DNA of 64,000 bases from Gemmatimonadota bacterium (GTDB lineage Bacteria > Latescibacterota > UBA2968 > UBA8231). The stretch is taken from the NCBI GenBank assembly GCA_038153405.1, contig JAYOYH010000007.1:43096-107095 (forward strand). The letters run 5' to 3'. Of this stretch, positions 23,658 to 63,854 are shown piece after piece (the first letter of the stretch is position 1; every line of letters begins with the position of its first letter). The notes below the pieces were generated by a model that did not search any database, was not told where the DNA came from, and saw only the letters and a list, made by a program, of their open reading frames with translations. Both the position numbers and the translations under genes were made by a program.

Positions 23658-23661
23658 GAAC

Positions 23662-29314: not shown

Positions 29315-29414
29315 GGCCAATCAAGTAGACATTTTTTTACGCTCAATACCTAGGCTCTAATCGCGCAGCGTGCGCGGGGATGACCTAAGGTGTTTTTCTT
29401 CAAGGAGAAGAAGT

Positions 29415-30347: not shown

Positions 30348-30512
30348 GACTGGGCTTTATAGCCTGATGTAAAGGTCGTATTGTTGAGTTTCATGCCGGG
30401 GAAGTTACTTCCTCGGCATGAAACCTATAGAGGCCTATGCCTTTTTTCACTACAATACAAATTTGGATACGTGCCCGTGCGGGTGCGTGTCGAGGATGAC
30501 GGGGAGCCGACG

Positions 30513-33500
30513 GTGAAAACGCCCTTCAAGGTGAATTTAAGCCAAATAGCACGGTTCTTGGCGTTGGTTGGCTTATGGACGCTTGCCTCCCAGGCCGATG
30601 CGCAGCGCCATCCGGAATCGCAGGGCCCCTTGCCCTACTATCGCGATGAACCGGGGGTGTTGCCGGAGCCTGAATGGCTGCATCGCCCCGAGTTCATCCG
30701 TGGGCCGCGGGATCGCTATGAGCGCGGTGCCAATCGACTGTTTTTGGCCACAGGGGACGACGTTCCCTACCTCAACTACGCCGAAGAGCGCTTTATCCTC
30801 TCGCAGCGAGAGTTAATTCCTTGGTTCCAGCCCAAAGGCCGTTCTTGGAAATTTCGCAACACGCGCTGGGATCGCATGGGCAATTATATGGGATCCCCCT
30901 CCAGTACATCCTCGCCGGCCAGCGGTTATTTGCGGCTGTTTTCTTGGGAGGAAACGCGCAGCGACGACGACGGTTTAGGGCGCAGTTTTATCGACCATCG
31001 CTCGCCTTCGCCGTGGGGGCCGCCTGCCGGATATAACGACGCCACTTTGCGCATAGGTCATTACAACTATAAAGATCTTCACTGGACGGCTACCGTCGGT
31101 CAGAGTGTGCGCAGTTATTTCACGCCGTTGACGCTAGCGCAAAGCCATCTTTCCGTGGCGCGCTTGGACTTCGATAATAAATTCGGCAAAGACCGCGCCA
31201 CGATTCTGCTCAACAGGGGGCGGACGCGGCCCGGTGGCCTCTTTTCCGAATGGGCTTCCGTTGGCGGTGAAACCGAAGATGCCAACCCAGTCCTTATGTA
31301 CGGTCTCCACTACAAGCATCGCTTCGGCCGCTACGCCCAATTTGGCACGACGCTCCTCAACCAGGTTTTGAACCAACCCGGATCCGGCAGCAGCAGTCCT
31401 TTGAAGGGCGATCTGCCCTACGATATGCTCGGTCCGCGCGTGATTCGCGTGTTCATCGCCGATGATTCACCCAGAGAGAGCCTGCACAATGCCAAGGTCT
31501 ACGGCGTCGACATCGTCGTTCGCGGCACGCGCGGAGACCAGCCCGTGACCCTTAGCAACCGCCAGGGGGAATTCTACGACCCGGGTTTAGAGCCGGTAGT
31601 GGCAGGTGGGCGGTTGCTGAGCGGAGATGGGCGGGAGGCGGTCGGTCTTGAAACGGTCGTGTATGAATTTACTATTCCGGGTGATATTACGGCGACCTCG
31701 GCCCGCTTCTTCGCCGATGTCTCCAACGACTATCGAATTGGCATTCGGCAAATCTACGATTTTCCCGGCATTAGCCGCTCGGGCGAGCTCGATTTGGAAG
31801 AGCGGGTTTGGCCCGACGACTTCGTCACCACCGAATCCGTCACGCGCCGCCCCTTTAAGTGGGATATCCAGGAGGGCGAGGAACCCTATTATACGGTGGC
31901 CCGTTCGGAGGGCGTGGGGCAAAATGGTTCAAACCGTCGCGTCGTGCAGTTCGATCACGGCATTCCCACGGGCCAGAACCTATTTTCGTTCGACGCACAG
32001 GCCAATCTCATCGGTCTGAAGTTCAGCGGCGAAATCGTCCGCAACAATCAGAATTACATCTATCCCGTAGGCCGCAATGACGGGCGGCGGACCAGCCACA
32101 AGGCGTTGGCCTATTGGCTCAACGTCAAAAAGGATATTGGGATTGCCAAGCGCTTGGGCGCGCAGCTGGGCGCCGAGTTTTTTCGCTTGGATCCCAGCTA
32201 TAGCGGCGGCTATGACAGCCAGCGCGGCGGCATGGCCTTCCACTTAGATCTGCAGGAATCACCGGGTGGGCGCGTGAAGTCGGATACGCAGGAGTACGGA
32301 CTGGTCGAAGACAACGACGACGACGATCAGTGGCCCGATGATTTTGTCGAAGATACAGCCTCGCCGGGACGCCTTTCTTACCCCGGTTGGCCCAACGCAT
32401 CCGTATATCCGGGCTTGGACGAAAATCTCGACAATATTCCCGACGTCGACCGCAACGAAAACTTTGTGCCCGATTGGAACGAGGCATTTCTCACCTACGA
32501 TGTCGATCCGCCAGAGTTTGTCTACGGAATAGACTTTAACAACAACGGCATGCCGGATTTTCGCGAGAACGACGACTTGCCCGACTATCCTTATCGCCGG
32601 GATCAAAAGGGACGCCACTTCTTCCTATTGCTTGACCGCTTGGGCGGCTGGGGCAAATCCATTTCCGCTGGCTACTATAAGTCGAACGAGATTGCTGGCG
32701 GGACTGAGGCCAAAAGCATGTACCTGCGCTATGCTCTCGAAAAGCAGCGAGATGGGGTGGGGAGTTTACAAATCAACATCGATACCAAGATCGTAGAGGA
32801 CAATATTCAAGACGATAGCTACGTGTATATCGTCCCGCCCAACGACGACGATGTCATTCCCTGGCTCAACAAGCCGGACCATCATCCCGACGTTGCCGGT
32901 CGCTACCGTCCTGCAACGCCCGATCCGCTGCTGATGCGCGACAGCTGGGTCAATACCGCTTATATCGACGCCGATTACCTGAAGATTGCGAATATGCGCA
33001 TTCACAATGCGCTGCTGTGGACGCGCAACAGCATGTCCGAGATTCCCCTTGAAGGAGGCGGAGATGGCGAGTTGTTGCAGGCCGAAGACGTCCGCTCGCG
33101 CCTCATCGTGATCAACAAAGTCGATCGAACCTGGTTGCTTAAGTCCATCGCGATTTCGACCAAGTTCAAACACCGCTTAATCTACGAAAATGTCGACAGC
33201 GAAGAAGATCCGCGCATATCAGCTTCCGATTTTATTCCCATCGTGATGGGGGAGTATGCGCTGACGCCCAAGACCCGATTGGTGCTGGGCGCACAGGGCA
33301 TGCCTTTTTTGCCCATGAAGCACTGGGATAGAGCCAATAAAGACGGCACTTATTCTCAGACCGACTACGCCTTCATGTACAAGATGCGCTCGGAGTATTT
33401 CGGTTTTGAAAACGACTTCTTCTTCGGCTATTTGCTTACGGATAGGCAGCACACTCGATTGCGCGACCGCGACTTCAATCGCGGCACGTTTTTCGTCGAA

Positions 33501-33518
33501 GTCATAACGCCATTCTAA
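30513..33518 (+). CDS. Large (~1000 aa) predicted outer-membrane beta-barrel protein with an acidic Ca-binding-like insert (paralog A)
   Basis: The GTG start at 30513 is preceded by GGGGAG and gives the signal peptide MKTPFKVNLSQIARFLALVGLWTLASQADA. The C-terminus ...FFVEVITPF carries the terminal Phe typical of OM beta-barrels. It is a strong paralog of 37552..40482. It lacks TonB-box/plug motifs, so it is not a classical TBDT. Confidence 0.7.
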   Translation: MKTPFKVNLSQIARFLALVGLWTLASQADAQRHPESQGPLPYYRDEPGVLPEPEWLHRPEFIRGPRDRYERGANRLFLATGDDVPYLNYAEERFILSQRELIPWFQPKGRSWKFRNTRWDRMGNYMGSPSSTSSPASGYLRLFSWEETRSDDDGLGRSFIDHRSPSPWGPPAGYNDATLRIGHYNYKDLHWTATVGQSVRSYFTPLTLAQSHLSVARLDFDNKFGKDRATILLNRGRTRPGGLFSEWASVGGETEDANPVLMYGLHYKHRFGRYAQFGTTLLNQVLNQPGSGSSSPLKGDLPYDMLGPRVIRVFIADDSPRESLHNAKVYGVDIVVRGTRGDQPVTLSNRQGEFYDPGLEPVVAGGRLLSGDGREAVGLETVVYEFTIPGDITATSARFFADVSNDYRIGIRQIYDFPGISRSGELDLEERVWPDDFVTTESVTRRPFKWDIQEGEEPYYTVARSEGVGQNGSNRRVVQFDHGIPTGQNLFSFDAQANLIGLKFSGEIVRNNQNYIYPVGRNDGRRTSHKALAYWLNVKKDIGIAKRLGAQLGAEFFRLDPSYSGGYDSQRGGMAFHLDLQESPGGRVKSDTQEYGLVEDNDDDDQWPDDFVEDTASPGRLSYPGWPNASVYPGLDENLDNIPDVDRNENFVPDWNEAFLTYDVDPPEFVYGIDFNNNGMPDFRENDDLPDYPYRRDQKGRHFFLLLDRLGGWGKSISAGYYKSNEIAGGTEAKSMYLRYALEKQRDGVGSLQINIDTKIVEDNIQDDSYVYIVPPNDDDVIPWLNKPDHHPDVAGRYRPATPDPLLMRDSWVNTAYIDADYLKIANMRIHNALLWTRNSMSEIPLEGGGDGELLQAEDVRSRLIVINKVDRTWLLKSIAISTKFKHRLIYENVDSEEDPRISASDFIPIVMGEYALTPKTRLVLGAQGMPFLPMKHWDRANKDGTYSQTDYAFMYKMRSEYFGFENDFFFGYLLTDRQHTRLRDRDFNRGTFFVEVITPF

Positions 33519-37452: not shown

Positions 37453-37551
37453 GGTTTCGGACGCAACGAAAAGGCAAAAGGATTCGCTGAGCGGAGGCGA
37501 ATGTCCATGAAAATAGAGCGGTTTTTATACTTCTCGGGTGAGGGAGCAATT

Positions 37552-40482
37552 ATGGAGCACGCGAATCGCGGTTATCGCTTGAGGTTACACGTCCTCGGGG
37601 TGCTTTGCGCGCTGGTCGCTCTGGGCGATGTCGGGTTTGCGCAGACGCACCTGCGCGATCGCGACTTTCTCAATCTGGGCTCGACAGAGGGCTATCTCAA
37701 CTACGGCCGCACGGAATACGAGCCCTATCCCGAACTCATTAGTGCGCGCAATCGCTACGACCGCCTGGGCAATTTTCAGATGCGCGGCCACAGGACGTTC
37801 ACCTGGGAACTCCAGCGTCCTGGGTTTAGCGAAATCAGCACGCGCTCTGAGCAGTATCTGGGTTGGTTTAACAACCTCATCATTATGAATGATACTTACC
37901 GGGGTTGGGATTTCGGGGTGACGGTTGGTGAGGATATCCGCACTAAACTCACCGATTTGACCTTCCACGATCCGCGCTACTACGGTATTCGCATGGACGG
38001 CGCGTCGGCCGATAACCGCTTTACGCTACTGCTTAGCCAGGGCGGCACGCAGGCCACGCAGTCGCCCAATCCCAAGTTTTCCACTTTTCAGGGCGGCAAA
38101 GAGCGTTCGTCTGTGCTGATGTTTGGTGGACACTGGGAGACGCAGTTGGGCAATATCCTCAAACTGGGCGCTACTTATTTCAACCACCATATGTTGGATA
38201 CGTTCAATGACAAGGGCGCCTTTGTCCGCGGCGATACACCCTATAGCATGCTGGCGCCCGCCTTTATTACGATCATCGTCGAGGACGATTCGCCCGATGC
38301 CAATCAGGTCGGTGCCGTCGTATACGATGTGGGTATCGAAATTCAGGCCGAGTCGCTGGGGCAGCAAATCCGCCTTAGCAGCTTGGAAGGCGATGCCAAC
38401 TACGATCCCACTCTGAGGCCGACGGTAGAAGGCGGCCTTCTCAACGCAGACGGCGGTCGTCACGTCAGCGGCGACGGCCAGCGCGTATTCTACACTTTCC
38501 GGATGCCCGAGTTCGCCCTGCCCGACGCGGCCGACTATGCCAACGATCCGTCCGCGGCGTTAAACGGACTCACGGTCAAATCGGTTCGCTTTCTGGCCGA
38601 TGTAGCCGGCGATTACAGAATATTGGTTAAGCAGCAGCACCTCTTCTTCAATGAATCGGCCTACGAGAAGAACCTCGAAAAAGAGTATGTGCCCGGCGAT
38701 AATAGCTACGTCAATCCATTCACCGGTTTGAAAGGAGCGGATGCCCTGCTGAGTCCGCAAGAAGCCTACGAAGCGGGGGAAGAAATATTCAAGCAGTGGC
38801 CGGTGCCGCCCAACCAGTCGATTAGCCAACTCAACCCCTTTATGCAGTTCAAATGGGATCTGGAAAACCCAGAAGAGGTGGCCTATACCGTCGTCCGCGC
38901 CGAGTCCAACTCAACCGATCTGAGCAACCGCCGCATCGTGAGCTTTGACTACGGCATTCCCACCGGGCAAGCGCTATTCGGTCTCAATAGCCACCTGACG
39001 TTGGGTGGATTTGATGTCAAGGCCGAGTTCGTTACAAATCCGCAGTATTTTATCTACCCGATTGGGAATAATGCGGGCAAGCGATTTCAGAAGAAGACGT
39101 TGGCCTACTTCATCAATGCGGTCAAGCGCTACGAGTCGCTGTCCTTTGGCGTTGAACTCTTCCAACTCGACCCCGACTACGGCGGCAATTACGACAGCAT
39201 TCGCGGTGGCGTGCCCTTTTTTACTGATGTGGCGCAAACCGGTTCGCAAATGCAGGAAATATTCGTCATGACCGACAACGACGACAACGATCAGTGGCCC
39301 GACGAACTCATCGTCGAACTGCCTAGCGCAGACCGCCAAGATTCGGGCGTTTTTCCCGGCCTCGACGAAAACCAGGATCTGGTGCCCGATACCGATCAGA
39401 ACCTCAACGGCATCGCCGACTGGACCGAGCCCATTATTTTTTACGATGCCGATCCACCCGAATTCGTCTACGGCCTCGACTTCAACAACAACGGCGTAGT
39501 CGATTTTCGCGAAAACGATGGGTTGCCCGATTACCCCTATCGCCGTGATCGCCGCGGGTTCCACCTCTTCACGCGCAAGGACGGCCTCGGCTTGTTGGGT
39601 AAGACCCTTTCGCTGGGCTACTACGACACCAAGGAAGTGGCTGGTCGCGGCAGGGCCAAGGCCATCTACGCGCGCTACGAGTACAGCACGAACTCACCGT
39701 ATTTGGGCCGTATTCGCATCAACGAGGATATCAAACGCGTAGAAGACAGTATTCGCGATGACGTCTATATCTGGCGCGATCGCAGCGTGCAGCGCATCGA
39801 CTCGCCCTATCCGCACATCACGCCGCGTCAGATAGAGGAGCGCGACCTCAACTCGCAGTTGCTGCCGCCCGACAGGGACCCGTTGCTGATGCGCAACAGC
39901 CTAGTCAATACCCTCTTTATCGAGGCACGCACCAGCCCCATCATCGATTTTAATTTGATCAACAACATTCAATGGCTGCGCAACAGCCAGTCAGCTGACG
40001 AGTTTGACGACGGCGTAGTACAAGAAGAGGACGTCCGTTCGCTCATCACCATGGTCAATAAAGTCGACTATACGATCCGCGCTGGAAATGTTACGGTAAA
40101 GCCCATGTTCAAGCATTTGCTCCTGCGCGAACACTCGCAAAAGCTCGATCGCGAACAGGGTCAAGGCAGCACGCGCTCGTTTTCCATTTTTACGCCGATT
40201 TTGCGCACCCGTCTCGATCTGACCAACAAATCCTACCTGCAGCTGGGATTTCAGGGGTTGCCGTTCTGGCGCTACACCAAGACCGACCGCGTCGACAGCA
40301 GCCAGAATTTCAAGGAGTGGACTACCGTATTCATGTTGACCAATCGATCGGATTACTATGGTTTTGCGCTGTCGACTCAAATTGGCTGGGAGACTACCCG
40401 CCGCGAGTATGACGACGAGATCAATTCGGCGCTCAACCGCAACAGCTCTACGCTGTTTTTCGATGTGCTGGCCGGCTTTTAA
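37552..40482 (+). CDS. Large predicted outer-membrane beta-barrel protein with an acidic Ca-binding-like insert (paralog B)
   Basis: GAGGGA Shine-Dalgarno before ATG 37552. The signal peptide is MEHANRGYRLRLHVLGVLCALVALGDVGFAQT and the C-terminus ...LFFDVLAGF. It shares long blocks with paralog A, for example NDD(D/N)DQWPDE, GLDEN.D..PD.D.N, DPPEFVYG(I/L)DFNNNG..DFRENDxLPDYPYRRD and PLLMR(D/N)S.VNT. Confidence 0.7.
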   Translation: MEHANRGYRLRLHVLGVLCALVALGDVGFAQTHLRDRDFLNLGSTEGYLNYGRTEYEPYPELISARNRYDRLGNFQMRGHRTFTWELQRPGFSEISTRSEQYLGWFNNLIIMNDTYRGWDFGVTVGEDIRTKLTDLTFHDPRYYGIRMDGASADNRFTLLLSQGGTQATQSPNPKFSTFQGGKERSSVLMFGGHWETQLGNILKLGATYFNHHMLDTFNDKGAFVRGDTPYSMLAPAFITIIVEDDSPDANQVGAVVYDVGIEIQAESLGQQIRLSSLEGDANYDPTLRPTVEGGLLNADGGRHVSGDGQRVFYTFRMPEFALPDAADYANDPSAALNGLTVKSVRFLADVAGDYRILVKQQHLFFNESAYEKNLEKEYVPGDNSYVNPFTGLKGADALLSPQEAYEAGEEIFKQWPVPPNQSISQLNPFMQFKWDLENPEEVAYTVVRAESNSTDLSNRRIVSFDYGIPTGQALFGLNSHLTLGGFDVKAEFVTNPQYFIYPIGNNAGKRFQKKTLAYFINAVKRYESLSFGVELFQLDPDYGGNYDSIRGGVPFFTDVAQTGSQMQEIFVMTDNDDNDQWPDELIVELPSADRQDSGVFPGLDENQDLVPDTDQNLNGIADWTEPIIFYDADPPEFVYGLDFNNNGVVDFRENDGLPDYPYRRDRRGFHLFTRKDGLGLLGKTLSLGYYDTKEVAGRGRAKAIYARYEYSTNSPYLGRIRINEDIKRVEDSIRDDVYIWRDRSVQRIDSPYPHITPRQIEERDLNSQLLPPDRDPLLMRNSLVNTLFIEARTSPIIDFNLINNIQWLRNSQSADEFDDGVVQEEDVRSLITMVNKVDYTIRAGNVTVKPMFKHLLLREHSQKLDREQGQGSTRSFSIFTPILRTRLDLTNKSYLQLGFQGLPFWRYTKTDRVDSSQNFKEWTTVFMLTNRSDYYGFALSTQIGWETTRREYDDEINSALNRNSSTLFFDVLAGF

Positions 40483-40526: not shown

Positions 40527-43500
40527 ATGCTTCTTGTGAATCTTCTCGTGATTGCCATAATGGGCGGAGCTGTGGGGTTGACGTCGCGCTATTTTTCCCC
40601 GCAAGAGCTGCAAGATCGCTTTGGCTTTGGGCAAAAGCTCTATGCCTTGGGCGACTACGAGAAGGCCTTGCCTCATTTCGAAGCCGTTATGGCGACGAAA
40701 AACAACATCACGATCAACGTCGAAGATGTCACTGTTACTCTCGACGAGTTTATCTTGCCCGTGCGAGTTGCTGCCACCTATCAGCTGGGCAATACGCACA
40801 ACAAGCTGGGGCAGGACAAACTGCGCCGCTCGGGGTTCTTGCGCGCAGAGGGCAAAGAGGATCAAGCCGATCAGCGCTACCAAGAGGCATTGGAGGAATT
40901 CAAGCGCAGCTTGGAGTATTTTGGCGAAATAAGCGCTGGCGAAGAAATCGATGAGCGCACGCGGGTTATGGCGCAATTCCAGACGCTTGAAACCAACTAC
41001 AAGCTCAAGCAATTTGATAGCGTGATTGAAGAGGGGGAACGCCTGCTCGAGCAGTTTCCCAACAGCGTGTATGAGACGGCCGCTTACTATAATATCGGCT
41101 GGTCGTATTACGAATTGGGTCAATACGGCAACGCTATCGACAACTTTAAAGAAGTGATAACGCTGTCGCCGCGCGGTTCGCACGCCGACCGCTCATACTT
41201 TCAGATCGCCGAATCGTACGGCAATTTGGAAGAGTACGACCAATCGCTGAACTACCTGGACCGGCTCATACGGCGCTATGACTTTTCCGCGATGTCGGAA
41301 AAGGAACTGATAGAAATGGCCAGCCTCAAGCTCAAAGGCCTCGTCGAGGAGACCTCGCGTGAATTGGTCGCCAAAGCACAGCTCAAGCGCGGCGATATTT
41401 TTTCCCGGCGCGGCGATGTAGATATGGCGCTGGCGGCCTATGCCAATGTGCCGGAAAAGTATCCGATGGAGACGGCACTAGTCGAGAATGCCTACATTCG
41501 CTCAGCCGAACTGATCAACGAAACGCGCGGCACCGACGCGGCGCTTATCGCCTACCAGAGCGCCATTGAAAACGTTGACGACAAGCGCTTTCAGGCCAGA
41601 ACTCAGCTGACGATCGCGCGCTTGCTGTTTGAAAAAGATGCCTTTGAACGGGCGGCCGAGCAGTACCGCATCTTCCTCAGCGCCTACGGAGACGTGGCGG
41701 CGCGCATTGGCTTTGCCGAAGACAAGGTGCTCTTCCGCATCAGCCAGTGTCACCAAGCGCTGATTCGCACGCACTTGGCCAACGGCAATGCCGATGGGGC
41801 AGACGAAGCAACGGCTGAGGCGTTGAGGATCTACGACGAGCTGCTAGTCAAACACGGCGATAGCCCGCTGTTGCCCGACGTCTACTTCTCGCGCGGTTAC
41901 GCCCGCCAGCTAATAAAAGACGCAGGAGCAGCCGACGACTTCACGCATATGGTTAGTACCTACCCCGATCACCCAGCCGCCCCCAATGCGCTTCTGCAGC
42001 TTGCGCGCATCGACTTTGAGGCGGGTAAGTTCCAGAGGGCACAGGCGACCTATGAGCGATTGCTGACGGACTTTCCCGAATCTGACCCGATCAATCCCGC
42101 GCGTATGGAACTGGGTCTGTGCTTCAAGAATATGAACGACCTGACCCGCGCAATCGCCTCCTTTGAATCGATTGATTCGCAGTGGAGCCAGTGGGGCAAA
42201 GTGCAGGCTGAGTTGGCCGACCTCTACGTGCGTTCCGGCGATCGCTCGGGTGCCAAGCGCGTGCTCGAGCGCGCTATGGAGCAGGTTGACAGCGATGAAC
42301 TGCGCGGACAGCTCGTTTACGTAAAATCGCGCGTCCACTTCACCGAGGCCGAGTATCGCGAGGCCATTGAAGGCTTTTCGCAAGCGCTGGAACTGCCTAT
42401 TCGCGAAGATATTTACAACGGTTCGCTTCTCTCGCGGGGCAGTGCATACTACGAACTGGCCAAAACGCTCGATGCCAAGGGCGATACGGCGCGCGCGCGC
42501 GGCGAATACGAGTTGTCTTTGATTGATATGAAAGCGCTCCTTGAGCGCGACCCGCCAGCCAACATAAAGGACAGCGCATTTCGTACTTTGGGTGCGGGAA
42601 TGATCCGTCTGCAGCGAGAGGACGAGGCCGTTCGCTACTACAAAGAGCTCATCGCATCCAGCGATGATCAGCAGCAGCGCGCGACGTTTCAAATGCTGCT
42701 GATGGAGCTCTATTTTGATCAGCAGGCCTTCGAACAGTCTGAAATCTTTGCCCGAGAGCTCCTCGAAATGGATTTCGAGGACGACAACAACGCCGGCTAT
42801 TACCGCAAAGAACGCGCCTATTCAATAATTGGCAACGCGCTTGTTCAGCGCAAAGATTATGCGGAAGCCAGTAAGATTTTCGCCGAAGGGCTAGCCCAGT
42901 ATCCACAGTCGGGTGAGAGCGCCAACCTGGCCTTTTCCAAGGCGTTTTCTGATTTCAATGGCGGCGATTACGAACTGGCCGCTAAGGGGTTTGCTTTTTA
43001 TGTCAATTCGTTTTCGAACGATCGCAATGCCGTACACGGCCAGTACTACCTGGCCCATAGCTATCAAATGCTCACCGACTTTGATAGCGCGGCGACGTCA
43101 TTCAGTGAGCTAATGGATCGCTATCCTCGCTCGAACTATACCGAAGAGGCGATGTTCTTAGTCGGGGAAAATTACTACAACAAGCGCGATTTCGCCGCCG
43201 CTTCGCAGGCCTATTCTACGCTGCTAGAGCGCTTTCCGAAGGGAAGGTATGGCGACGCGGCTCTGTACGCCAAGGCCTGGTGCGAATTCGAGCAAGAAGA
43301 TATGGAAGCGGGAGTGGCTTCAATGGCCCAGCTCGTAAGCAACTTTCCCCAAAGCGAGTTTGCCGCCAAAGCTCAGTTTACGGTTGGCGATTACCACTAC
43401 AACAACCGCAACTATAAAGAGGCGCTCAAAGCCTACTCTGTCTTGATCGAGTCCTATGCCTCTACGCCGGAAAAACAGCGCGCAGAAGCTCTCGTCGAAG

Positions 43501-43799
43501 AACTGAGCGAAATCGAGGCGAGTTTGGATTACGCTCAGGTTATGGGCAAATTCGAGTCAAAAGACTATGAAAATGCCATTAGGGGTTTTAAGGAAATTAT
43601 CGAGAAATATCCCGATACCTATACGCAGCTGGCTGCCTATTGCAATCTGGGGCTCACCTACGAGATCCTCAGGCAGTGGCCTCAAGCTGTCGAGAATTAC
43701 GATCAAACCCTGGCCAGAGGGGAGGGCGATATCGAAAATTCGGACGTCGTCAATTTTGCTCGTCTGCACCGGGATTGGATCGTCGAAAACAGGCTATAA
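40527..43799 (+). CDS. 1090-aa TPR-repeat protein with an N-terminal membrane anchor
   Basis: An N-terminal TM (LLVNLLVIAIMGGAVGL) followed by more than 20 TPR-like units throughout (YNIGWSYYELGQYGNAIDNFKEVI and many others). Periplasmic scaffold-like. Confidence 0.8.
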   Translation: MLLVNLLVIAIMGGAVGLTSRYFSPQELQDRFGFGQKLYALGDYEKALPHFEAVMATKNNITINVEDVTVTLDEFILPVRVAATYQLGNTHNKLGQDKLRRSGFLRAEGKEDQADQRYQEALEEFKRSLEYFGEISAGEEIDERTRVMAQFQTLETNYKLKQFDSVIEEGERLLEQFPNSVYETAAYYNIGWSYYELGQYGNAIDNFKEVITLSPRGSHADRSYFQIAESYGNLEEYDQSLNYLDRLIRRYDFSAMSEKELIEMASLKLKGLVEETSRELVAKAQLKRGDIFSRRGDVDMALAAYANVPEKYPMETALVENAYIRSAELINETRGTDAALIAYQSAIENVDDKRFQARTQLTIARLLFEKDAFERAAEQYRIFLSAYGDVAARIGFAEDKVLFRISQCHQALIRTHLANGNADGADEATAEALRIYDELLVKHGDSPLLPDVYFSRGYARQLIKDAGAADDFTHMVSTYPDHPAAPNALLQLARIDFEAGKFQRAQATYERLLTDFPESDPINPARMELGLCFKNMNDLTRAIASFESIDSQWSQWGKVQAELADLYVRSGDRSGAKRVLERAMEQVDSDELRGQLVYVKSRVHFTEAEYREAIEGFSQALELPIREDIYNGSLLSRGSAYYELAKTLDAKGDTARARGEYELSLIDMKALLERDPPANIKDSAFRTLGAGMIRLQREDEAVRYYKELIASSDDQQQRATFQMLLMELYFDQQAFEQSEIFARELLEMDFEDDNNAGYYRKERAYSIIGNALVQRKDYAEASKIFAEGLAQYPQSGESANLAFSKAFSDFNGGDYELAAKGFAFYVNSFSNDRNAVHGQYYLAHSYQMLTDFDSAATSFSELMDRYPRSNYTEEAMFLVGENYYNKRDFAAASQAYSTLLERFPKGRYGDAALYAKAWCEFEQEDMEAGVASMAQLVSNFPQSEFAAKAQFTVGDYHYNNRNYKEALKAYSVLIESYASTPEKQRAEALVEELSEIEASLDYAQVMGKFESKDYENAIRGFKEIIEKYPDTYTQLAAYCNLGLTYEILRQWPQAVENYDQTLARGEGDIENSDVVNFARLHRDWIVENRL

Positions 43800-43835: not shown

Positions 43836-44504
43836 ATGTCGGAAAATTTTATAGTCGGCCAGTTTCTCAAGGGCGGTCCAATGATGTGGCCGCTATTGAT
43901 CTGTTCTCTCATTTCGATGGTCGTTGCCATCGACCGCCTGTTGAGCTATATGCGCCTGCCGTCTGAGGAAGAGGCGGAAGCACATCTTTCGGAAGTGGAA
44001 TCGGTGTTGGAAAAGGGCGGCGAAGCGGCCGCCGTAGAGCACTTCAAGGCGAATAAAGGCGTGCTCAATTACGTTTTTGCCGCGTTGTTAAAACGCTATG
44101 ACTCGCTCGTTTTAGAGAATCGGACGGATGTGGAGGATATGCGGCAGGAACTCATCACGGTTACGGAAGAGGCGGGCATCGACTATCTCGGCCGTCTGCT
44201 CAATGCCTTAGGGACGATTGGGGTGCTCGCACCGCTCATGGGGCTGCTGGGAACGATCGTGGGAATGATCCGCGCCTTTGACGCCATTGCCCAGGCCGGT
44301 GCCGGCGATCCGGCCGCCGTGGCCAGCGGTATTTCCGAAGCGCTTATCACCACGGCTTCGGGTCTGATCGTGGCCATTCCGACCATCGTCTTTCACCGTT
44401 ACCTATCTGCCCGGGCCGACAAGGCGTATAAGGAGATTGAACTCTACTGCCATGCCTTCGCCAACACGCTTATCGTTCGCTTTAGCAATCAGCGCGAGAG
44501 CTAG
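43836..44504 (+). CDS. exbB: MotA/TolQ/ExbB-family proton channel
   Basis: The classic core LGTIGVLAPLMGLLGTIVGMIRAF....GAGDPAAVASGISEALITTASGLIVAIPTIVFHRYL, with 3 TM segments and a length of 222 aa. Confidence 0.85.
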   Translation: MSENFIVGQFLKGGPMMWPLLICSLISMVVAIDRLLSYMRLPSEEEAEAHLSEVESVLEKGGEAAAVEHFKANKGVLNYVFAALLKRYDSLVLENRTDVEDMRQELITVTEEAGIDYLGRLLNALGTIGVLAPLMGLLGTIVGMIRAFDAIAQAGAGDPAAVASGISEALITTASGLIVAIPTIVFHRYLSARADKAYKEIELYCHAFANTLIVRFSNQRES

Positions 44505-44519: not shown

Positions 44520-44966
44520 ATGCCCAAAAGGCCAGCACTAGCTCGGCGAATAAAGGGCAAGGCGCGCAATAATGCGCGTTTTGCGACCAGTACAGATCCG
44601 GATATGACGCCGTTGATCAACTGCATCTTTCTGCTATTGGTCTTCTTTATGGTGGCGACGACCTTTCTCAATACTAAGGGGCTTAGCGTTGATTTGCCTG
44701 GAGGCCAGGGGGATGATTCTTCGCGCGCTAGCAAAGATATCAACATCGTCATAGAAAAAGACGGTGCGATACAGGTCAACGGCGAATTGACGACGACCGA
44801 GCAGCTTGCCGAGCGGATTGGCAATATCGTTCAGTCCGATAATATCAAGAATGTGATTATAGAGGCGCATCGCACCGTTCGACACCAAACGGTGGTCCAG
44901 GTCGTCGATATCGCGCGCGGACAGGGTATCCAAGCGGTGGCTTTTGCCAAGTCGGCGGAGGGCTAG
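44520..44966 (+). CDS. exbD: ExbD/TolR-family protein (copy 1)
   Basis: DMTPLINCIFLLLVFFMVATTF is the ExbD TM signature, with a periplasmic domain following. The length is 148 aa. Confidence 0.85.
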   Translation: MPKRPALARRIKGKARNNARFATSTDPDMTPLINCIFLLLVFFMVATTFLNTKGLSVDLPGGQGDDSSRASKDINIVIEKDGAIQVNGELTTTEQLAERIGNIVQSDNIKNVIIEAHRTVRHQTVVQVVDIARGQGIQAVAFAKSAEG

Positions 44967-44968
44967 CC

Positions 44969-45418
44969 ATGGCGCGCAGAATGCAGACAAGCGATGCCAA
45001 CAACAACGATCTTAACCTGACACCCCTGATTGACGCGGTCTTTCTATTGCTGGTCTTTTTTATGGTCACGTCAGTTTTTGTACAGGCCACGCAGTTAAAG
45101 ATCGAGTTGCCCATTGCCGACAACTACGACAAGATCGACCAGGAGAAAAAGCTGAGCCTGCTCATTTCGGCCGAGGGGCAACTCGAGTTTAACAGTCAGT
45201 TGGTGAGCATGGGCCAGTTGACCGGCTTCATTGAGGACGAACGCCTGCGTTCGGGGTCGGGCACCCTCATCATAACGGCCGATGCGCAAACGCCGCACGG
45301 CTTTGTACTCGATGCGATGGAAATGGCGGTAATGGCAGGTGTGAGCAAGATCGACCTCGAAACCGGCGAAAACAAAGCGGCCGGAGAGGCCAGCGCCGCG
45401 GCCGCAGCAAAGGAATAG
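44969..45418 (+). CDS. exbD: ExbD/TolR-family protein (copy 2)
   Basis: DLNLTPLIDAVFLLLVFFMVTSVF. It starts 3 nt after the copy-1 stop, and the length is 149 aa. Confidence 0.85.
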   Translation: MARRMQTSDANNNDLNLTPLIDAVFLLLVFFMVTSVFVQATQLKIELPIADNYDKIDQEKKLSLLISAEGQLEFNSQLVSMGQLTGFIEDERLRSGSGTLIITADAQTPHGFVLDAMEMAVMAGVSKIDLETGENKAAGEASAAAAAKE

Positions 45419-45421
45419 CGA

Positions 45422-46216
45422 ATGACGTCCCTTCGGTTGAGTTCTATTGCCCTGTGTATGTCCCTTATCGCCACGCTGAGCGGATGTGCCTATCTGGCCA
45501 GCCTCATCCCGCAAGAGATGTATTACGAAATCTCTCTCAGCCCTTTGCTGCCCGAGGGGAGAGGTGAGTATCAGGTTGACCCCGACGATCCCCAAGCGGT
45601 GACGTTTAGCCACGAGGGCATGGTCGTACGGGTGCGGCCCTATACCGACGACGAACTCAACGCGCTCTATCCACCGCTCTTTGACGGGCGCCATACCAAT
45701 CCCTACACCACCGATCAACTCAATGTGGATCTCGGCTACGTGCCGCCGATTTTTATGGTGTTTGACATAACGGTGGTCAACCAGACGTATTCCAAGATCG
45801 AATTTGACCCGGCTAGGACTTTGCTTACGACCAATACCGGACGCAAGCTGCGCTATTACGATCCCGGTAGAGCTGGAGAGGGCGTAGATCCGCTGGGTGG
45901 AAACCGCTTTAGCACCTATTATCAGACGGAGCGGGGCCGTTCGGGTATCGATAAGGACATCAACTTGGAACGCATGGGCCTTATTTACAAAACGGCTTTC
46001 CATCGCTTTCGCCCCGTCTTTCGCGGCGACGAGCGCAGCGGCACGCTGACCTTTGATAAGTTGCCTCCCGATGCGACCGAGGTGGTCCTTTCAGTTGATG
46101 ACTTCGTCCTTTCTTTTGACGCGAGCGGCAACCCCGAACGGACCATTGACTTTGAGTGCCGGTTTAAAGTCAACCAGGGCGTTGTTGAAAGCCAAGTCGA
46201 TCCGCTGTTAGATTAG
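45422..46216 (+). CDS. Lipoprotein, uncharacterised family (paralog of 33524..34285)
   Basis: Lipobox TLSGCA, with FDITVVNQTYSKIEFDP and C-terminal DFVLSFDASGNP...F..RFKVNQGVVE blocks shared with 33524..34285. Confidence 0.65.
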   Translation: MTSLRLSSIALCMSLIATLSGCAYLASLIPQEMYYEISLSPLLPEGRGEYQVDPDDPQAVTFSHEGMVVRVRPYTDDELNALYPPLFDGRHTNPYTTDQLNVDLGYVPPIFMVFDITVVNQTYSKIEFDPARTLLTTNTGRKLRYYDPGRAGEGVDPLGGNRFSTYYQTERGRSGIDKDINLERMGLIYKTAFHRFRPVFRGDERSGTLTFDKLPPDATEVVLSVDDFVLSFDASGNPERTIDFECRFKVNQGVVESQVDPLLD

Positions 46217-46296
46217 GGCGCCAGCCCCCTCTATCGGGGCCCATTTAACGAAGGTTAACTCACCTGTTTAAACCGCACATCGTTTCATCTGCAAGT

Positions 46297-46341
46297 AATT
46301 CGACCAGAGAATGCACGGCCTCCGCACTCTCTGGTCGAATT
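46297..46341. promoter_or_regulatory. Perfect 14-bp inverted repeat AATTCGACCAGAGA-N17-TCTCTGGTCGAATT ending 3 nt before the ATG of the PPIase gene
   Basis: Seen directly: arms at 46297-46310 and 46328-46341. The hairpin would occlude the ribosome-binding region. This is a candidate operator or translational control element, or a terminator for the upstream gene. Confidence 0.5.
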
Positions 46342-46344
46342 GTA

Positions 46345-47985
46345 ATGTCGTCTTTGTCGCTCGCCCTATGTGGGCTGCTGATGGCCTGTGGCGGCGAGAA
46401 GCCGGCGCCCACACTGCTGGCACGAGTAGGCGATAAGTCCATCCATATCGACGATCTCATTGCTTTTGAGCGCGCCATTGAAAGCGGAGATTCGCTGAGC
46501 GCAGAGGCGCATCGCCAGCACCTTAATACGCTCGTCGATCGCGAAGTGCTGATCTTGGAAGCGCGAGCCCAAGGCTTGGAGACCGATGCCTATTTTCAGC
46601 AGGTACTGGCTGGTGATATTGAAACTAAACTAGCCGAAATGATGTTTAATCAGGAGGTGGCCGAGCGCTCTGAACCGACGCCGGAAGAAATTGAGGCGGC
46701 CTATGCCACCGGTGATTGGAAGCAGCAGGTCGTAAGCGTTGAGCTGTTCTTGCCCGACGAGGAAACGGCGCTTAGGGTGCGCGCGGAAATTCTCAATGGA
46801 ATGGACATCTTCGAGGCCGGTCGACTCTATTCGGTTGACCGCCTAATGCACATTCCGATGGGCGGTGCTCAGCAGTTTGTCTATTCCAAACAGGATGGAC
46901 CGGCCGAAGTCGTTCAGCGCGTTTTTCAGATTCCCGCCGGTAGTATTTCATCGCCTATACCGCTATTTAATGGCTTTGTCCTAGCCTACGTCGCCGAGTA
47001 CCGCGACGTCCAGCGTGCGGAGGTCGCCGACGAATTGGCCCGCTATGTTCGCAAGGAAAAGCGTCGCTTGCTGCGGGGGGCCTATTTGCAGCATTTGAAC
47101 AAAGCGCTCAATCTGCAGTTTTCATCGACCGGTTTAGAGCGCGCTGTTGCCCATTTGTCGCAGCTGAAAGCGGACGATTCGACGCCGCTGCCGGCCGACT
47201 CCAATGCGGTGGTCTATTCGTACGGTGACGCGTCTGCCGACCTGGGGACCGTTGTGGGATTGATGCAGGGTCCGGCGCGGCGCTGGCCCGAAATAAATTC
47301 GGAAAATATCGTCGCCGAAATAAAGAATACCGTATTGCCGAATCTGCTAATGGCCGCCAATGCGCGCGAACGCGATATCGATTCCTCGCCCGAGTTCCTC
47401 GCCTGGAAGAGCTGGCGCAGCGAGGATTTGCTCCTTTCGCTGCTGCGCAAAACCGTTTGCTCCGGCATCGAGGTGTCAGAAGATGAGGTGGTCTCGCACT
47501 ATCGGAAAGTGAGGCGGCGCTTTCGCATTCCCGGCTATGCCCGAGTGCGCGATGTGCTGGTGGCAACGCGGGAGGAAGCTGTTGCGCTCAAAGAGGCCGT
47601 TGAAAATGGAGCCGACTTTGCCCAGATCATTGAGGAGCATTCCCTGCGCAAGGGCAGCAAAAAAGGCGTGTTTCGCGTCTTTGCCCTACAGGCCAATAAA
47701 TATGGCAGCGGGTGGATGAACTACGCGTTTAACGTCCCTATCGGACAGCTTGAGGGGCCCGTGCAGGCCGAAGGGGGATTTTCCCTATTGGAAGTAGTCG
47801 AACGGGTCGATGATGCCTATTATTCCCTCGACGAGTCTAGGGTGCGCTCGGCGGTCACGCGCGATATGCAAAAAATAAAAGAACGCAGCGCGTTTAATGA
47901 ATTTGTAAGGGACGTGCGCGCAAGGCGCGCTGAGCAAATTACCCTATACCAAGATCATCTGGCAGCTGTTTGGGAGCGCCCGTAG
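46345..47985 (+). CDS. SurA/PpiD/PrsA-like periplasmic chaperone lipoprotein with a parvulin-type PPIase domain
   Basis: The signal ends LLMACGG (lipobox). The parvulin domain RVRDVLVATREEAVALKEAVENGADFAQIIEEHS..KG.....F..G.M...F....F....G.L.GPV....GF.LLEV is typical of PpiC/SurA. Confidence 0.75.
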   Translation: MSSLSLALCGLLMACGGEKPAPTLLARVGDKSIHIDDLIAFERAIESGDSLSAEAHRQHLNTLVDREVLILEARAQGLETDAYFQQVLAGDIETKLAEMMFNQEVAERSEPTPEEIEAAYATGDWKQQVVSVELFLPDEETALRVRAEILNGMDIFEAGRLYSVDRLMHIPMGGAQQFVYSKQDGPAEVVQRVFQIPAGSISSPIPLFNGFVLAYVAEYRDVQRAEVADELARYVRKEKRRLLRGAYLQHLNKALNLQFSSTGLERAVAHLSQLKADDSTPLPADSNAVVYSYGDASADLGTVVGLMQGPARRWPEINSENIVAEIKNTVLPNLLMAANARERDIDSSPEFLAWKSWRSEDLLLSLLRKTVCSGIEVSEDEVVSHYRKVRRRFRIPGYARVRDVLVATREEAVALKEAVENGADFAQIIEEHSLRKGSKKGVFRVFALQANKYGSGWMNYAFNVPIGQLEGPVQAEGGFSLLEVVERVDDAYYSLDESRVRSAVTRDMQKIKERSAFNEFVRDVRARRAEQITLYQDHLAAVWERP

Positions 47986-50228: not shown

Positions 50229-52133
50229 ATGACCTATAGATCGTTCATATTGGGCACCTTGGTGGTGCTGGCTGTGGTCTGCGGGGCGCCCTATGCCATC
50301 TGGATGGTGCGCTCGTCGGAAATCACGTGGTCCTATTTTCCCACCAGCGTTGGCTTTTGCTTTGTCGTCCTCTTTTTGCTCAATGCACTCATACAGAAGG
50401 TGAGCGGTCGGTCTTTTCTACAGCCAAGTGAGTGGGCGATTGTCGTGATTATGGGTTTGGCGGCCACGGGTATACCGACCTTTATCGTCGGCACGCTATT
50501 GGCCATTATTTCCAGTCCATACTACGGGGCAACGCCCGAAAATGACTGGGAGGGCAATATTCACGCTTTCCTCCCCGACTGGCTGGTGCCTAGCCCCGAA
50601 GGCGGAGCCATGCGCCATTTCTACGAGGGGCTGCCCGCCGGCCAGGAGGTGCCCTTTGACGTCTGGATGGGGCCGCTGTTCTGGTGGCTGAGTCTTATTT
50701 TTTCCATCTACTTTATCTGCTTTTGCATGGTCGTGCTGTTTCGAAGGCAGTGGGTTGAAAACGAGCGCTTGGTCTTTCCGCTGATGGAAATGCCGCGCCT
50801 ATTGGTCGACGAAGATGGTCGTCATCTGCTGCGTTCTAAGCTATTCTGGGCCGGGTGTGCTGTGCCCCTGTCTATGATGCTGTTTAACGTGGTGGGTTAT
50901 TTCTACATTGGGTTTCCGCAAATAAACTTTCACCACCCCGTTACGATCGAGTTGAGTCGCGATTTTCCCGCACTCTCGCTCATGCTCTACTTTCCCGTCA
51001 TCGGTTTTATGTATTTGGTGAGCACCTCCGTTTCGCTCAGCATCGTCGTCTTTTACCTAATCGCTGTTCTGCAGGAGGGGATTACCAATCGCATTGGCTA
51101 CGACGTGACGCGCCCCGATGCCTGTGTCTGGGGCATGCAGTCGCTTTCCTGGCAGGCGTGGGGCGGATTTACGGCGATGGTGCTGATCAGTTTGTGGATG
51201 GCTCGGCGACATCTGGGCGCTGTCGCTGGCCAGGTCTTTGCCGGGCAAAGGACCGTGGACGATAGCGAGGAGATGATTTCCTACCGCACAGCGGTTTACG
51301 GTTTCCTCTTGGGGTTGCTCTACGTGGTGGGCTGGCTGTGGAAATCCGGTATGGATCTGCACGTCGCCCTGCTCTTTATCGGCGCCGTATTGATCGCCTA
51401 TTACGGCGTTACCCGCCTGGTTATCCAGGCCGGCATTTACTTTCTGACCCCCCCAGTGGGTGCCCAAGCATTTGCCCTAGCCATAACCGGCACGAGCATT
51501 GGCGGTCACAACTTGGTTGCTCTGGGGCTCTCCTACGCCTGGTTTGGCGACGTGCAGTCGCTCTTTATGCCGGCGGCTGCGCACGGGGCGCGCCTAGCCG
51601 AAATTTATCGCGTGCGTCGCGGTATGGCTTGGGCGCTGGGGGCGGCCGTGCTGATCGGTTTTGTCGCCAATATCTACTTTGTCCTGACGCTGTGCTACAA
51701 GTTTGGCGCGGGCAATTTTGGCTCCTGGTACTTTGTTGCCGGGGGCGGAGCAGGAGGCATGGCTTTTAACGGAGTCATTCGCCATTTTAACGATCCCTGG
51801 CCGATGGATGTAAACAAGCTTAGCTACTTTGCCATTGGAGCATGTGCCTACGCGCTGCTGGCATTTTGTCAATATCGCTTTTACTGGTGGCCACTGTCGC
51901 CCGTAGGGATTGCCGTCGCACCACTGTGGATGACGCGTCTGATCGTGTTTTCGGTCTTTTTGGCTTGGGTGAGCAAGAGTGCCATTATGCGCTATGGGGG
52001 GATTAGCGCCTACCGCACGGCGCGGCCATTTTTCATGGGGCTGATCGCGGGTTATTTTCTCGGCGTCGGCATTTCCTACTGCATAGATGCCATTTGGTTT
52101 ATGGGGGACGGACACGTTTATTTTCACGGCTAG
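50229..52133 (+). CDS. Large polytopic membrane protein (634 aa), paralog of 60796..62802
   Basis: It shares extended blocks with the 60796..62802 product: GAPYAIW..SSEITWS(Y/F)FP..VGF.FV, MGL..TGIP.F..G, W..P.FWWLS.I...Y..CFC.VV..R.QWVE.ERL..PLME.P, FLAWV.KS.IMR.GGI. Confidence 0.7.
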   Translation: MTYRSFILGTLVVLAVVCGAPYAIWMVRSSEITWSYFPTSVGFCFVVLFLLNALIQKVSGRSFLQPSEWAIVVIMGLAATGIPTFIVGTLLAIISSPYYGATPENDWEGNIHAFLPDWLVPSPEGGAMRHFYEGLPAGQEVPFDVWMGPLFWWLSLIFSIYFICFCMVVLFRRQWVENERLVFPLMEMPRLLVDEDGRHLLRSKLFWAGCAVPLSMMLFNVVGYFYIGFPQINFHHPVTIELSRDFPALSLMLYFPVIGFMYLVSTSVSLSIVVFYLIAVLQEGITNRIGYDVTRPDACVWGMQSLSWQAWGGFTAMVLISLWMARRHLGAVAGQVFAGQRTVDDSEEMISYRTAVYGFLLGLLYVVGWLWKSGMDLHVALLFIGAVLIAYYGVTRLVIQAGIYFLTPPVGAQAFALAITGTSIGGHNLVALGLSYAWFGDVQSLFMPAAAHGARLAEIYRVRRGMAWALGAAVLIGFVANIYFVLTLCYKFGAGNFGSWYFVAGGGAGGMAFNGVIRHFNDPWPMDVNKLSYFAIGACAYALLAFCQYRFYWWPLSPVGIAVAPLWMTRLIVFSVFLAWVSKSAIMRYGGISAYRTARPFFMGLIAGYFLGVGISYCIDAIWFMGDGHVYFHG

Positions 52134-60795: not shown

Positions 60796-62802
60796 CTACC
60801 CGTGCAAAATGGGATGGCCGTTGCCGGGAAAAAAAATCATATCGACGATAAAGGAGATGCCGACCCCGCTAAAGTGGCCTATGATAAGGCCTAGGAAAAA
60901 AGGAGCGGCCTTGCGATAGAGATCGATGCCGCCGAAGCGCATAATGAGACTTTTAGCCGCCCAGGCGATAAAGATGGCTGCCGCCTGATTGCGAATCATC
61001 CACACGGAAGATATGGCCAATCCAACGGGGTGGAGCGGCCACCATGGAAAGCGGTACTGCAAAAAAGTCAGGACCGACATAGCCGCCGAGCCGATGGCAA
61101 AGAACGTCAGCTTTTGCGCGTGAAAATCGGCTGGACTCTTGATCTTAGCCATGACGTCGTCAAACGAGCGCACGCCGGCGCCGGAGGATACGCGGAAGAA
61201 CCACGAGTTGAAATTCGATGCGCCCTGATCGTAGGCCATAGTGATGACATAGGCCAGCGTGGAGAAAAAGCCAACGCCTAGAGCCAGAATAATGGCTAGC
61301 CCTAGGCCGCGTCGGGTCATGCGCATGGCGTCGTGCAGGCGGGCAGCGTGGGCGGCCGAGGGCATAAAGATCGACTGTACGTCTCCGAAGAAAGAGTAGC
61401 TCAGGCCGAGGGCCGCTAAACCGCTGGGATTTATGGAGGCCGTTCCCAGCGTCATCATGGTCATCGCCTGGCTAACGATGGGCGTGGTCATATAAAATAC
61501 GCCGGTCTGCACCACTAGGCGCGTTATGCCTAGGTAGGCGATGAGTACGCCGGCCAGAAAAAAAGCGGCCACCGAAAACTCCATGCCCGCTCGGTAGAGC
61601 CAGGCCAGCATGTAGGAAACGCCGAGGAGCAATCCCACGCTGGCGGCGCGATAGGACATCAACTCGCGCGAGTCGTCGATCTCTATGCTGGTATTCCACG
61701 CTTTGCGCGCCACGTCTTTGAGGTGGTCGCGCGCCATCCACAGGCTCCACAGCACCAGCGTTACAAAGGCCCCCCAGCACTGCCACGACGTCGAGGGAAG
61801 GCCCCAGACAAAGGTATCGCCCTCCGTTACGCCCAAACCAAAGCGGTTGAAGAGTCCTTCCTCGAGCATAGTGAGGATAAAGAAAAACCATATGCTAAAC
61901 GTGATGTTTAGGTTGGCAAAATACATAAAGCCAACCACGGGGAAGTAGTAGCGGATATTGATCGTTGGAAAGCCGTGGGCTATCTGTATGGGGTGTTCCC
62001 AGGCGATCGTGGGAAAGAAGTGAAAGAAGAAGCCGACGATATTCCACAGGGCAATAAAGAGGGGAATGGCGGCACCGGCCCAGAACACTTTGTTGCGCAT
62101 GATGGCCGGCAGCAGAGAGGGCGAATCTGCATCGGCGACGAGGGCTTGGGGCACTTCCATCAGCGGGTAGGCCAGCCGTTCGCGCTCGACCCACTGCTTG
62201 CGCAGGATGACGACGAGGCAGAAGCAGACCAAGTAGAGGGTCCAGATAAAGCTCAGCCACCAAAACATCGGCATAGTCCAGGCGTTGAGCAGGGTGCTCC
62301 AAGGAATGGGCTCGCCAATGGGAAGACCCTCGAAGAACCAGGTCATGGCTAGCCCCTCGTTCGAGGGGAGCAGCCAGGCGGGAAGGTGGGGCAGAACGTG
62401 AGTGCCCCACTGATTTTCCGCCGAGGCGAAATAGTAGGGCGTCGTCGGAATGGACAGAACGAAGCCCATCATGAAAATGGGTATACCGGTGGTGACTAGA
62501 CCCATGACGACGACGGTAATCATCTCAGCCGGTTGCAGCGCCCAGCGCGGGTTGAGGGCTTTGAGCAGGGCGTTGAGGCCAATGAGGCAGACAAAGAAAA
62601 AGCCGACGGCAATGGGAAAGAATGACCAAGTAATTTCAGACGAACCCAGCACCCAGATGGCATAGGGCGCGCCTAGGCACACGACGAGGACCTGCAGCAG
62701 GCCCAGCAGCAGGGAGCGCAGCGTCAGTCCGCTGGTCAAGCCAGACTGTGCGGAGGGCTCGCCGTCTGATGGATCAGATACGGGCATTGTAGAATTGGGC
62801 AC
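60796..62802 (-). CDS. Large polytopic membrane protein (668 aa), paralog of 50229..52133
   Basis: See the shared blocks listed for 50229..52133. There are 12 or more TM helices. Confidence 0.7.
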   Translation of the reverse strand: MPNSTMPVSDPSDGEPSAQSGLTSGLTLRSLLLGLLQVLVVCLGAPYAIWVLGSSEITWSFFPIAVGFFFVCLIGLNALLKALNPRWALQPAEMITVVVMGLVTTGIPIFMMGFVLSIPTTPYYFASAENQWGTHVLPHLPAWLLPSNEGLAMTWFFEGLPIGEPIPWSTLLNAWTMPMFWWLSFIWTLYLVCFCLVVILRKQWVERERLAYPLMEVPQALVADADSPSLLPAIMRNKVFWAGAAIPLFIALWNIVGFFFHFFPTIAWEHPIQIAHGFPTINIRYYFPVVGFMYFANLNITFSIWFFFILTMLEEGLFNRFGLGVTEGDTFVWGLPSTSWQCWGAFVTLVLWSLWMARDHLKDVARKAWNTSIEIDDSRELMSYRAASVGLLLGVSYMLAWLYRAGMEFSVAAFFLAGVLIAYLGITRLVVQTGVFYMTTPIVSQAMTMMTLGTASINPSGLAALGLSYSFFGDVQSIFMPSAAHAARLHDAMRMTRRGLGLAIILALGVGFFSTLAYVITMAYDQGASNFNSWFFRVSSGAGVRSFDDVMAKIKSPADFHAQKLTFFAIGSAAMSVLTFLQYRFPWWPLHPVGLAISSVWMIRNQAAAIFIAWAAKSLIMRFGGIDLYRKAAPFFLGLIIGHFSGVGISFIVDMIFFPGNGHPILHG

Positions 62803-63699: not shown

Positions 63700-63854
63700 T
63701 CCATTGTTGGAAGGATACTATACGCAAAAAAGGAGAAAACGGCGAGTGAGTATGGTCATTAGGGTAGGGAAGGAATGGCTACAGTGACGCTCATTTTGCC
63801 GATTCACCTTGCAAGTAATGCGACCACTCGCTATATATAACGCCGTGAATAGAA

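Follow-up and report, generated by a model that had tools for sequence, protein, structure and literature searches.

A conserved RNA hairpin at one envelope-gene junction of Latescibacterota and a 17-mer that it shares, most likely by coincidence, with a distant predicted promoter

Two widely separated intergenic sites in a 64,000-nt stretch of DNA (hereafter the window, meaning the whole stretch analysed) carry nearly the same 17-mer, and one of the two copies runs into a palindrome, which raises the question whether the sites share a regulatory element and what the palindrome does. Copy A, TGCAAGTAATTCGACCA (46290-46306, forward strand), and copy B, TGCAAGTAATGCGACCA (63810-63826, forward strand), differ at a single base, and the window has no third match with 3 or fewer mismatches. 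Copy A lies 39-55 nt ahead of the start codon of a PPIase gene (site A) and copy B 43-59 nt ahead of that of a solute-binding-protein gene (site B). The palindrome at site A is a perfect inverted repeat, AATTCGACCAGAGA (46297-46310) and TCTCTGGTCGAATT (46328-46341) separated by 17 nt, which ends 3 nt before the ATG at 46345. These features had been reported in the original prediction, and all of them were found again as described.

Upstream of site A are five genes on the same strand. They encode a 1090-aa TPR/YbgF-like protein with YbgF/CpoB- and BamD-like repeats at the head of the cluster (40527-43799; a TPR protein and not a TonB-dependent receptor), a MotA/ExbB/TolQ protein (43836-44504, forward strand), two ExbD/TolR proteins (44520-44966 and 44969-45418, forward strand), these three recognised by Pfam and NCBIfam, and a 264-aa protein without a family match in either collection (45422-46216, forward strand). 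The gene that follows encodes a PPIC-type PPIase lipoprotein (46345-47985, forward strand, when called from the first ATG; Pfam Rotamase_2/Rotamase, lipobox LMAC). The order of the ExbB/ExbD-type cluster and the PPIase gene was the same in every relative fetched (L001, L002, L003, L140, L143 and the P0035 contig), and the PPIase homologs with a named source came from Candidatus Latescibacterota. The cluster may be of the Tol type rather than the TonB type. Directly after the stop codon of the 264-aa gene lies a separate small GC hairpin, GCCCC-N7-GGGGC followed by CCATTT (46224-46240, forward strand), which has the compensated form GCCCCT-N4-AGGGGC in L002; its counterparts in L003, L122 and L123 read GCTCT(C)...(G)AGRGC, then T4-T5. 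A pair of paralogous DUF6785/DUF6784 genes (50229-52133, forward, and 60796-62802, reverse) stands in inverted orientation with about 71-73% DNA identity over parts of their length, an arrangement also seen in L003, L135, L140 and L143.

The palindrome forms most of a stem-loop (46296-46342, forward strand) in which the arms 46297-46310 and 46328-46341 enclose 3 inner base pairs and a 9-nt loop. Of all local inverted repeats in the window, the one formed by these arms is the longest, and the RNA folds at -27 kcal/mol (z = -4.5). Within the stem, CCAG (46304-46307) and CTGG (46331-46334) bound an invariant forward-strand core of 31 nt. The same CCAG-N23-CTGG hairpin was carried by every one of the 17 orthologous junctions of the cluster with the PPIase gene, over a range of PPIase amino acid identities from 99% to 33%; the junctions read were those of the window, L001, L002, L003, L122-L125, L127-L132 and L140-L143. 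The core was 31 nt long throughout, except for 30 nt in L132, and the hairpin of L131 was found by a covariance model although this sequence was absent from the training set. Each of the 16 sequences folded gave a stable sense-strand stem-loop, at -15 to -27 kcal/mol.

Covariation supports this structure. In an alignment of 16 sequences (A4), 91.5% of the cells formed standard pairs and two-sided compensatory changes were found at 7 of the 14 pairs, for example from AGAGA/TCTCT to AGCGA/TCGCT in L125 and to GGAAACG/CGTTTGC in L127-L129. These pairing values were reached by none of 500 shuffles, pairing fell to 35-42% when the partners were slid by 1-3 columns, and RNAalifold independently gave the same helix. 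The four CCAG/CUGG pairs were invariant and the sequence of the loop was not conserved. Among the non-Watson-Crick cells 30 were of the G.U type and 5 of the A.C type, a count to which no exact probability is attached since the sequences are related, and this excess indicates that the hairpin acts as sense-strand RNA and not as duplex DNA. In 248 kb of Latescibacterota DNA the covariance model found a single copy at each locus, unlike what a dispersed repeat of the REP or MITE kind would give. It scored the true sites at 37-50 bits and reached at most 14.8 bits when run on 760 kb of DNA from unrelated bacteria. A search of Rfam 15 gave no relevant match at E <=10 for the window region or at E <=1 for five orthologous loci, and literature searches gave nothing on the motif. 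In L141, an ortholog of 38% identity, GGTCGTTTTTTTAAGGCA (the hairpin 3' foot plus the T-run) occurs as a tandem triplication at 40-100, directly after the hairpin.

That the hairpin might be a by-product of a conserved peptide (TREC...SGR) was considered and rejected: the compensatory changes alter residues (in L125, R becomes S while S becomes A), relative to the gene frame the hairpin of L130 and L132 is in other phases, and in L142 a stop codon in frame lies between the hairpin and the PPIase start. Judged by the orthologous junctions, the palindrome is a real, conserved, covarying, strand-specific and locus-confined RNA hairpin across Latescibacterota. By the same comparison it is functional, and it probably sets how much PPIase message is made or used.

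The deep-branching orthologs L142, L141, L130, L131 and L132 share a layout in which T7-T8 directly follows the stem, then AAGGG or GGAG, and then the start codon. L142 has a 13-bp stem, T8, AAGGG, 9 nt and ATG, L130 has the stem, T8, GGAG, 8 nt and TTG, L132 and L131 have the stem, TTTCTTTTTT, GGAG, 8 nt and TTG, and L141 has T7 after the stem. A terminator scan called the hairpin site in L130 and L132, and missed that of L142 only because it allows loops of up to 8 nt. The distance from the T-run to the ATG in L142 is 14 nt and leaves no room for a separate promoter, so that the PPIase gene would there be transcribed through the hairpin. This layout points to an intrinsic terminator or attenuator in the leader, and the common function of the hairpin is most likely transcription attenuation or termination rather than simple occlusion of the start codon.

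The 8 bases after the stem include 3 T in the window and in L002, and 4-6 in the lineages of 52-65% PPIase identity, where the T-rich tail may encode hydrophobic signal-peptide residues. The window also contains a textbook bidirectional intrinsic terminator, AAAAAAGGGGCTGGAG-N9-CTCCAACCCCTTTTTTT with a T7 run (15691-15731), between the convergent genes 15268-15687 (forward) and 15749-16567 (reverse), and against this example the decayed U-tract makes termination at site A doubtful in the window's own lineage. Terminator scans of the whole window were at background level and carried no information. No competing (antiterminator) pairings were seen in folds of the whole intergenic regions, in which the hairpin was dominant. 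A counterpoint to attenuation is that the invariant lower stem and the fixed length amount to more constraint than terminators normally show; they could be the mark of a protein contact.

On balance we lean, by a modest degree, towards an account in which a coincidental 17-mer joins a sigma70-like promoter at site B and a conserved junction hairpin of attenuator origin at site A. On this account the hairpin would have its origin in an intrinsic terminator or attenuator that separated the PPIase gene from the motor genes, and would set or regulate the amount of transcription that continues into the PPIase gene. In the clade of the window the spacer would have collapsed, leaving the hairpin next to the ATG or within an ORF that starts at an upstream CUG. 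With the U-tract decayed, the effect of the hairpin there would more likely be a lower PPIase expression, brought about by RNA structure at the 5' end. With a CUG start of the ORF, the stem would be melted by the translating ribosome, and read-through would be linked to translation.

The palindrome had also been suggested to be a translational control hairpin, and this idea was borne out in so far as a conserved sense-strand RNA structure does exist; the control of translation fares less well, as the position of the start varies and the U-run of the deep-branching orthologs favours attenuation or termination. In its fuller form the hairpin would be a translational operator that blocks access of the ribosome to the PPIase start, either constitutively or through an RNA-binding protein on the GRCCAG/CUGGUY stem. 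Its geometry fits in several lineages, with the stem stopping 3 nt short of ATG 46345 in the window and overlapping the ATG in L002, and with an ATG in the loop or the 3' arm in L140, L130, L131 and L132. The invariant lower stem and the fixed size suggest specific recognition, and ATG 46345 has no Shine-Dalgarno sequence although the genome uses them, a clear GGAG or GAGG standing upstream of other genes in the window. The start is nevertheless found after, inside or before the stem depending on the lineage, a well-spaced Shine-Dalgarno sequence and start lie unoccluded 17-65 nt beyond the stem in L142, L141, L130 and L132, and the sequence of the loop is not conserved; for a thermosensor version the stem, at -20 to -27 kcal/mol, is too stable. 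We know of no protein that binds the PPIase leader hairpin. A translational operator is in our judgement possible, though unlikely.

The position of the PPIase start may itself differ from the first ATG. An SD-like GAAGG (46250-46254) and an in-frame CTG (46264-46266) form a candidate CUG start of the PPIase ORF (46250-46266, forward strand). In 12 of 12 lineages of the 52-99% group an in-frame CTG (TTG in L140) stands upstream of the hairpin CCAG without an intervening stop, and it is preceded at -14 to -7 by AGGA, GGAG, GAAGG or AGGGG; the SD-like block and the CTG were seen in the window, L002, L003, L122-L129, L140 and L143. The distance from the CTG to the CCAG is 37 nt, with 34 nt in L140 and 31 nt in L125, differences that are multiples of three, and of the frames open upstream of the hairpin that of the gene is the longest in each of the 15 lineages tested. 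The window, L002 and L143 have their first canonical start beyond the hairpin and L140 has it in the loop, whereas it lies at the hairpin 5' foot in L128 and L129 (TTG) and 4-7 codons before the hairpin in L003 and P0035. No ATG, GTG or TTG precedes the signal-peptide core in L122, L123, L124, L125 and L127, and both L123 and L127 have TTA at a position occupied by ATG or TTG in their sister lineages. At least five different start positions are used in the database entries for this PPIase, and an exact-protein look-up of the window PPIase gave no match, the database entry starting at a different codon.

CUG starts are very rare in bacteria. The segment between the CTG and the hairpin has no third-position (codon-position) substitution bias, so that the case for a CUG start is made by frame, spacing and the Shine-Dalgarno sequence. 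The CTG at 46264 may be the true start of the PPIase, which we put forward as a lead and not as a finding; the hairpin would then cover approximately codons 12-27 and the 17-mer of site A would be coding. An extension of this lead is that the PPIase starts at the conserved CUG and that the hairpin, 37 nt downstream, is a translated attenuator whose CCAG/CUGG foot contacts a factor. RNA polymerase would then read into the gene only when a ribosome from the weak CUG follows closely and melts the stem, and the synthesis of an envelope chaperone would depend on the capacity for translation initiation. Although we consider this combination rather improbable, a CUG start with translation-coupled attenuation would, if confirmed, make a compact case of gene control from a lineage about whose gene regulation, to our knowledge, nothing is known. 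The locus in any event likely exposes a problem in the start-codon annotation of the PPIase.

Another possible role for the hairpin is that of an intercistronic RNA processing or stability element, protecting the motor-gene mRNA as a 3' stem or the PPIase mRNA as a 5' stem. The genes on either side of the hairpin are co-oriented, tightly spaced and of conserved order, an arrangement in which such an element would give different amounts of product from one operon, and the hairpin is stable with or without a U-tract. The second-strongest local hairpin of the window is likewise intercistronic and lacks a U-tract: an 18-nt inverted repeat, GTTTCATGCCGGGGAAGT / ACTTCCTCGGCATGAAAC, with its arms 1 nt apart (30388-30424), flanked by the gene 29370-30347 and by the following one, whose ATG is likely at 30437 after GAGG. 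Stems of this kind normally drift in sequence, whereas the lower stem here is invariant, and in several lineages the hairpin would lie inside an ORF. We regard the role as doubtful on these grounds.

We return below to the hairpin, with its proposed attenuator origin, and turn here to the 17-mer that led to it. A 16/17 match in 64 kb had been held to be very unlikely by chance. This claim was not borne out, for in 20 dinucleotide-preserving shuffles of the window there were 13-28 17-mer pairs at 16/17 or better, with a mean of approximately 19, about 10 of them direct. The window itself contains 106 independent 17-mer pairs with at most one mismatch, many of them from paralogous repeats. Most 17-mer matches within the window come from two genes (17510-19195 and 21930-26121) with repeats of about 150-200 nt that encode D-x-D-x-D-G-type (FG-GAP/VCBS-like) units. 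Two other large paralogous genes (about 1000 aa each; 30381-33518 and 37501-40482) have stretches of 74-85% identical DNA.

When both copies are required to be intergenic (2,430 nt), 0.007 direct pairs are expected and P is approximately 0.01 under a first-order Markov null, although this restriction was picked post hoc, after the match had been seen, and the null ignores the promoter-type sequence common to intergenic regions. The value also lapses should CTG 46264 be the start of the PPIase ORF, which would make site A coding. A scan of a genome collection for TGCAAGTAATNCGACCA gave at least 118 matches. Those listed were single matches in unrelated taxa, with no Latescibacterota genome among them, and they fit a rough estimate by which a few hundred would be expected by chance.

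The relatives separate the two parts of the 17-mer at site A. On the left, 11 nt belong to a flank that evolves fast; the remaining 6 nt, CGACCA, form the base of the hairpin 5' arm. Site A of L001 (99%) is identical to that of the window. L002, the closest relative that has diverged at site A (86% PPIase amino acid identity), reads CGTTACGCATC against TGCAAGTAATT in the window, with 7 of the 11 positions changed and CGACCA kept, and both flanks of the changed 11-nt stretch are nearly unchanged. The left part of the 17-mer was conserved in none of the more distant orthologs. A gene-conversion patch was considered as the source of the 17-mer and set aside, since the clustering of the 7/11 mismatches that separate L002 from the window does not reach significance (P = 0.07). 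Inspection by eye also gave no sigma-54, ECF-sigma or sigma70 element at site A, where GG/GC spacing is lacking and no -10 box stands 16-18 nt from CTGCAA.

Site B lies between a minus-strand CBM9-like gene (62878-63690) and the ATG at 63869 of the solute-binding-protein lipoprotein gene, of which the window, by whose end the gene is cut, holds the 5' part (63869-64000, forward strand); the start was located by alignment to the 425-aa SBP gene called in L135. The downstream operon consists of SBP_bac_1 and permeases of an ABC transporter. A sigma70-like promoter is predicted here, with a -35 box TTGCAA (63809-63814), a 17-nt spacer and a -10 box TATATA (63832-63837; in all 63809-63837, forward strand), and copy B of the 17-mer is made up of the last 5 nt of the -35 box and 12 nt of the spacer. 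L135, whose CBM9-like protein is 92% identical, reads CCTTGCAAGCAATGCGGCCACTCGCTATATATA, as does L136, and the L135 counterpart of copy B is TGCAAGCAATGCGGCCA, with two changes in the 17-mer, both in the spacer. TTGCAA-N17-TATATA is kept in L135 and L136, and L139 (72%) has TTGCTC-N17-TATATA with an unrelated spacer. Across the window, L135/L136 and L139 it is thus the hexamers and their distance of 17 nt that are kept while the spacer diverges, as in a promoter of the sigma70 type. A consensus promoter scan made no call at site B, because position 6 of the -10 box is an A, and the promoter is accepted on the comparative evidence from the relatives and not on the scan. The covariance model of the hairpin had no match at site B. 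The 17-mer there would therefore, as judged from sequence comparison, be part of an ordinary sigma70-like promoter for the solute-binding-protein operon.

A shared transcription-factor operator or alternative-sigma element had been proposed for the two sites, and neither is upheld, as the sites are unlike each other in the relatives, the left half of site A is unconserved and site B is a promoter box with a free spacer. A true cis element co-regulating both lipoprotein genes in this lineage could draw on the 16/17 match between two intergenic regions (P approximately 0.01 under the intergenic-only null), on the same orientation of the copies and on their similar distances to the ATG. The 17-mer has, however, neither dyad nor direct-repeat symmetry, the copy at site A is not conserved in relatives, site A of L002 and site B of L135 match at only 9 of 17 bases, it is the promoter boxes and not the 17-mer that are conserved at site B, and the similarity between the sites stops exactly at the edges of the 17-mer. 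Such an element is very unlikely. The match is most likely a coincidence, with a small residual chance of a lineage-specific element, and the claim of a shared regulatory 17-mer should be dropped, which avoids the inference of a false regulon. Least probable of all, and hardly credible to us, is a reading of the palindrome as a duplex DNA operator bound by a dimeric transcription factor. It has in its favour two half-sites, GACCAG and CTGGTC, that never vary and stand at a fixed distance, but pairing is maintained through covariation of the interior, for which a DNA-binding protein has no need, the sense-strand G.U-type bias (30 vs 5) points to RNA, and a distance of 23 bp between half-sites is unusual for an operator.

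The hairpin at the PPIase junction is, with the 17-mer set apart, a well-supported and undescribed cis-acting RNA motif of an uncultivated phylum that is tied to one envelope-biogenesis gene junction, and the evidence from covariation and strand bias is good enough for an entry of the Rfam type.

Among known systems, site B compares with sigma70-type promoters in that TTGCAA and TATATA lie 17 nt apart before the first gene of an operon, with conserved boxes and a free spacer. It departs from the sigma70 consensus by an A for T at position 6 of the -10 box.

For the hairpin, the MS2 replicase operator and the leaders of ribosomal-protein genes are comparable as hairpins at a translation start, since the PPIase start codon abuts the stem or lies inside the hairpin in several lineages and part of the stem is invariant and could be a protein contact. 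The PPIase hairpin differs from them in its unconserved loop and in a start that ranges from before the stem to well after it. The infC gene, with its AUU start and non-AUG autoregulation, offers a parallel for the CTG preceded by a Shine-Dalgarno sequence, the only in-frame start candidate common to the 52-99% group; unlike in infC, the use of the PPIase CUG is putative, and the segment that follows it carries no substitution bias of the coding type.

The closest likeness to the preferred reading, that of a hairpin of attenuator origin, is with intrinsic terminators and attenuators such as the pyrBI leader. In contrast to intrinsic terminators the window hairpin has a degenerate U-tract, and its lower stem and 31-nt core are invariant across a phylum-level spread; in contrast to leader attenuators, neither a separate leader peptide nor an antiterminator pairing was found at the hairpin. 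In common with them it is a stable GC-based stem-loop on the sense strand between co-oriented genes, it is followed by T7-T8 in L130, L131, L132, L141 and L142, and in L142 the PPIase gene has no room for a promoter of its own. In the pyrBI leader a translating ribosome prevents formation of the terminator, and as in attenuators of the pyrBI type an open reading frame runs through the hairpin in the clade of the window.
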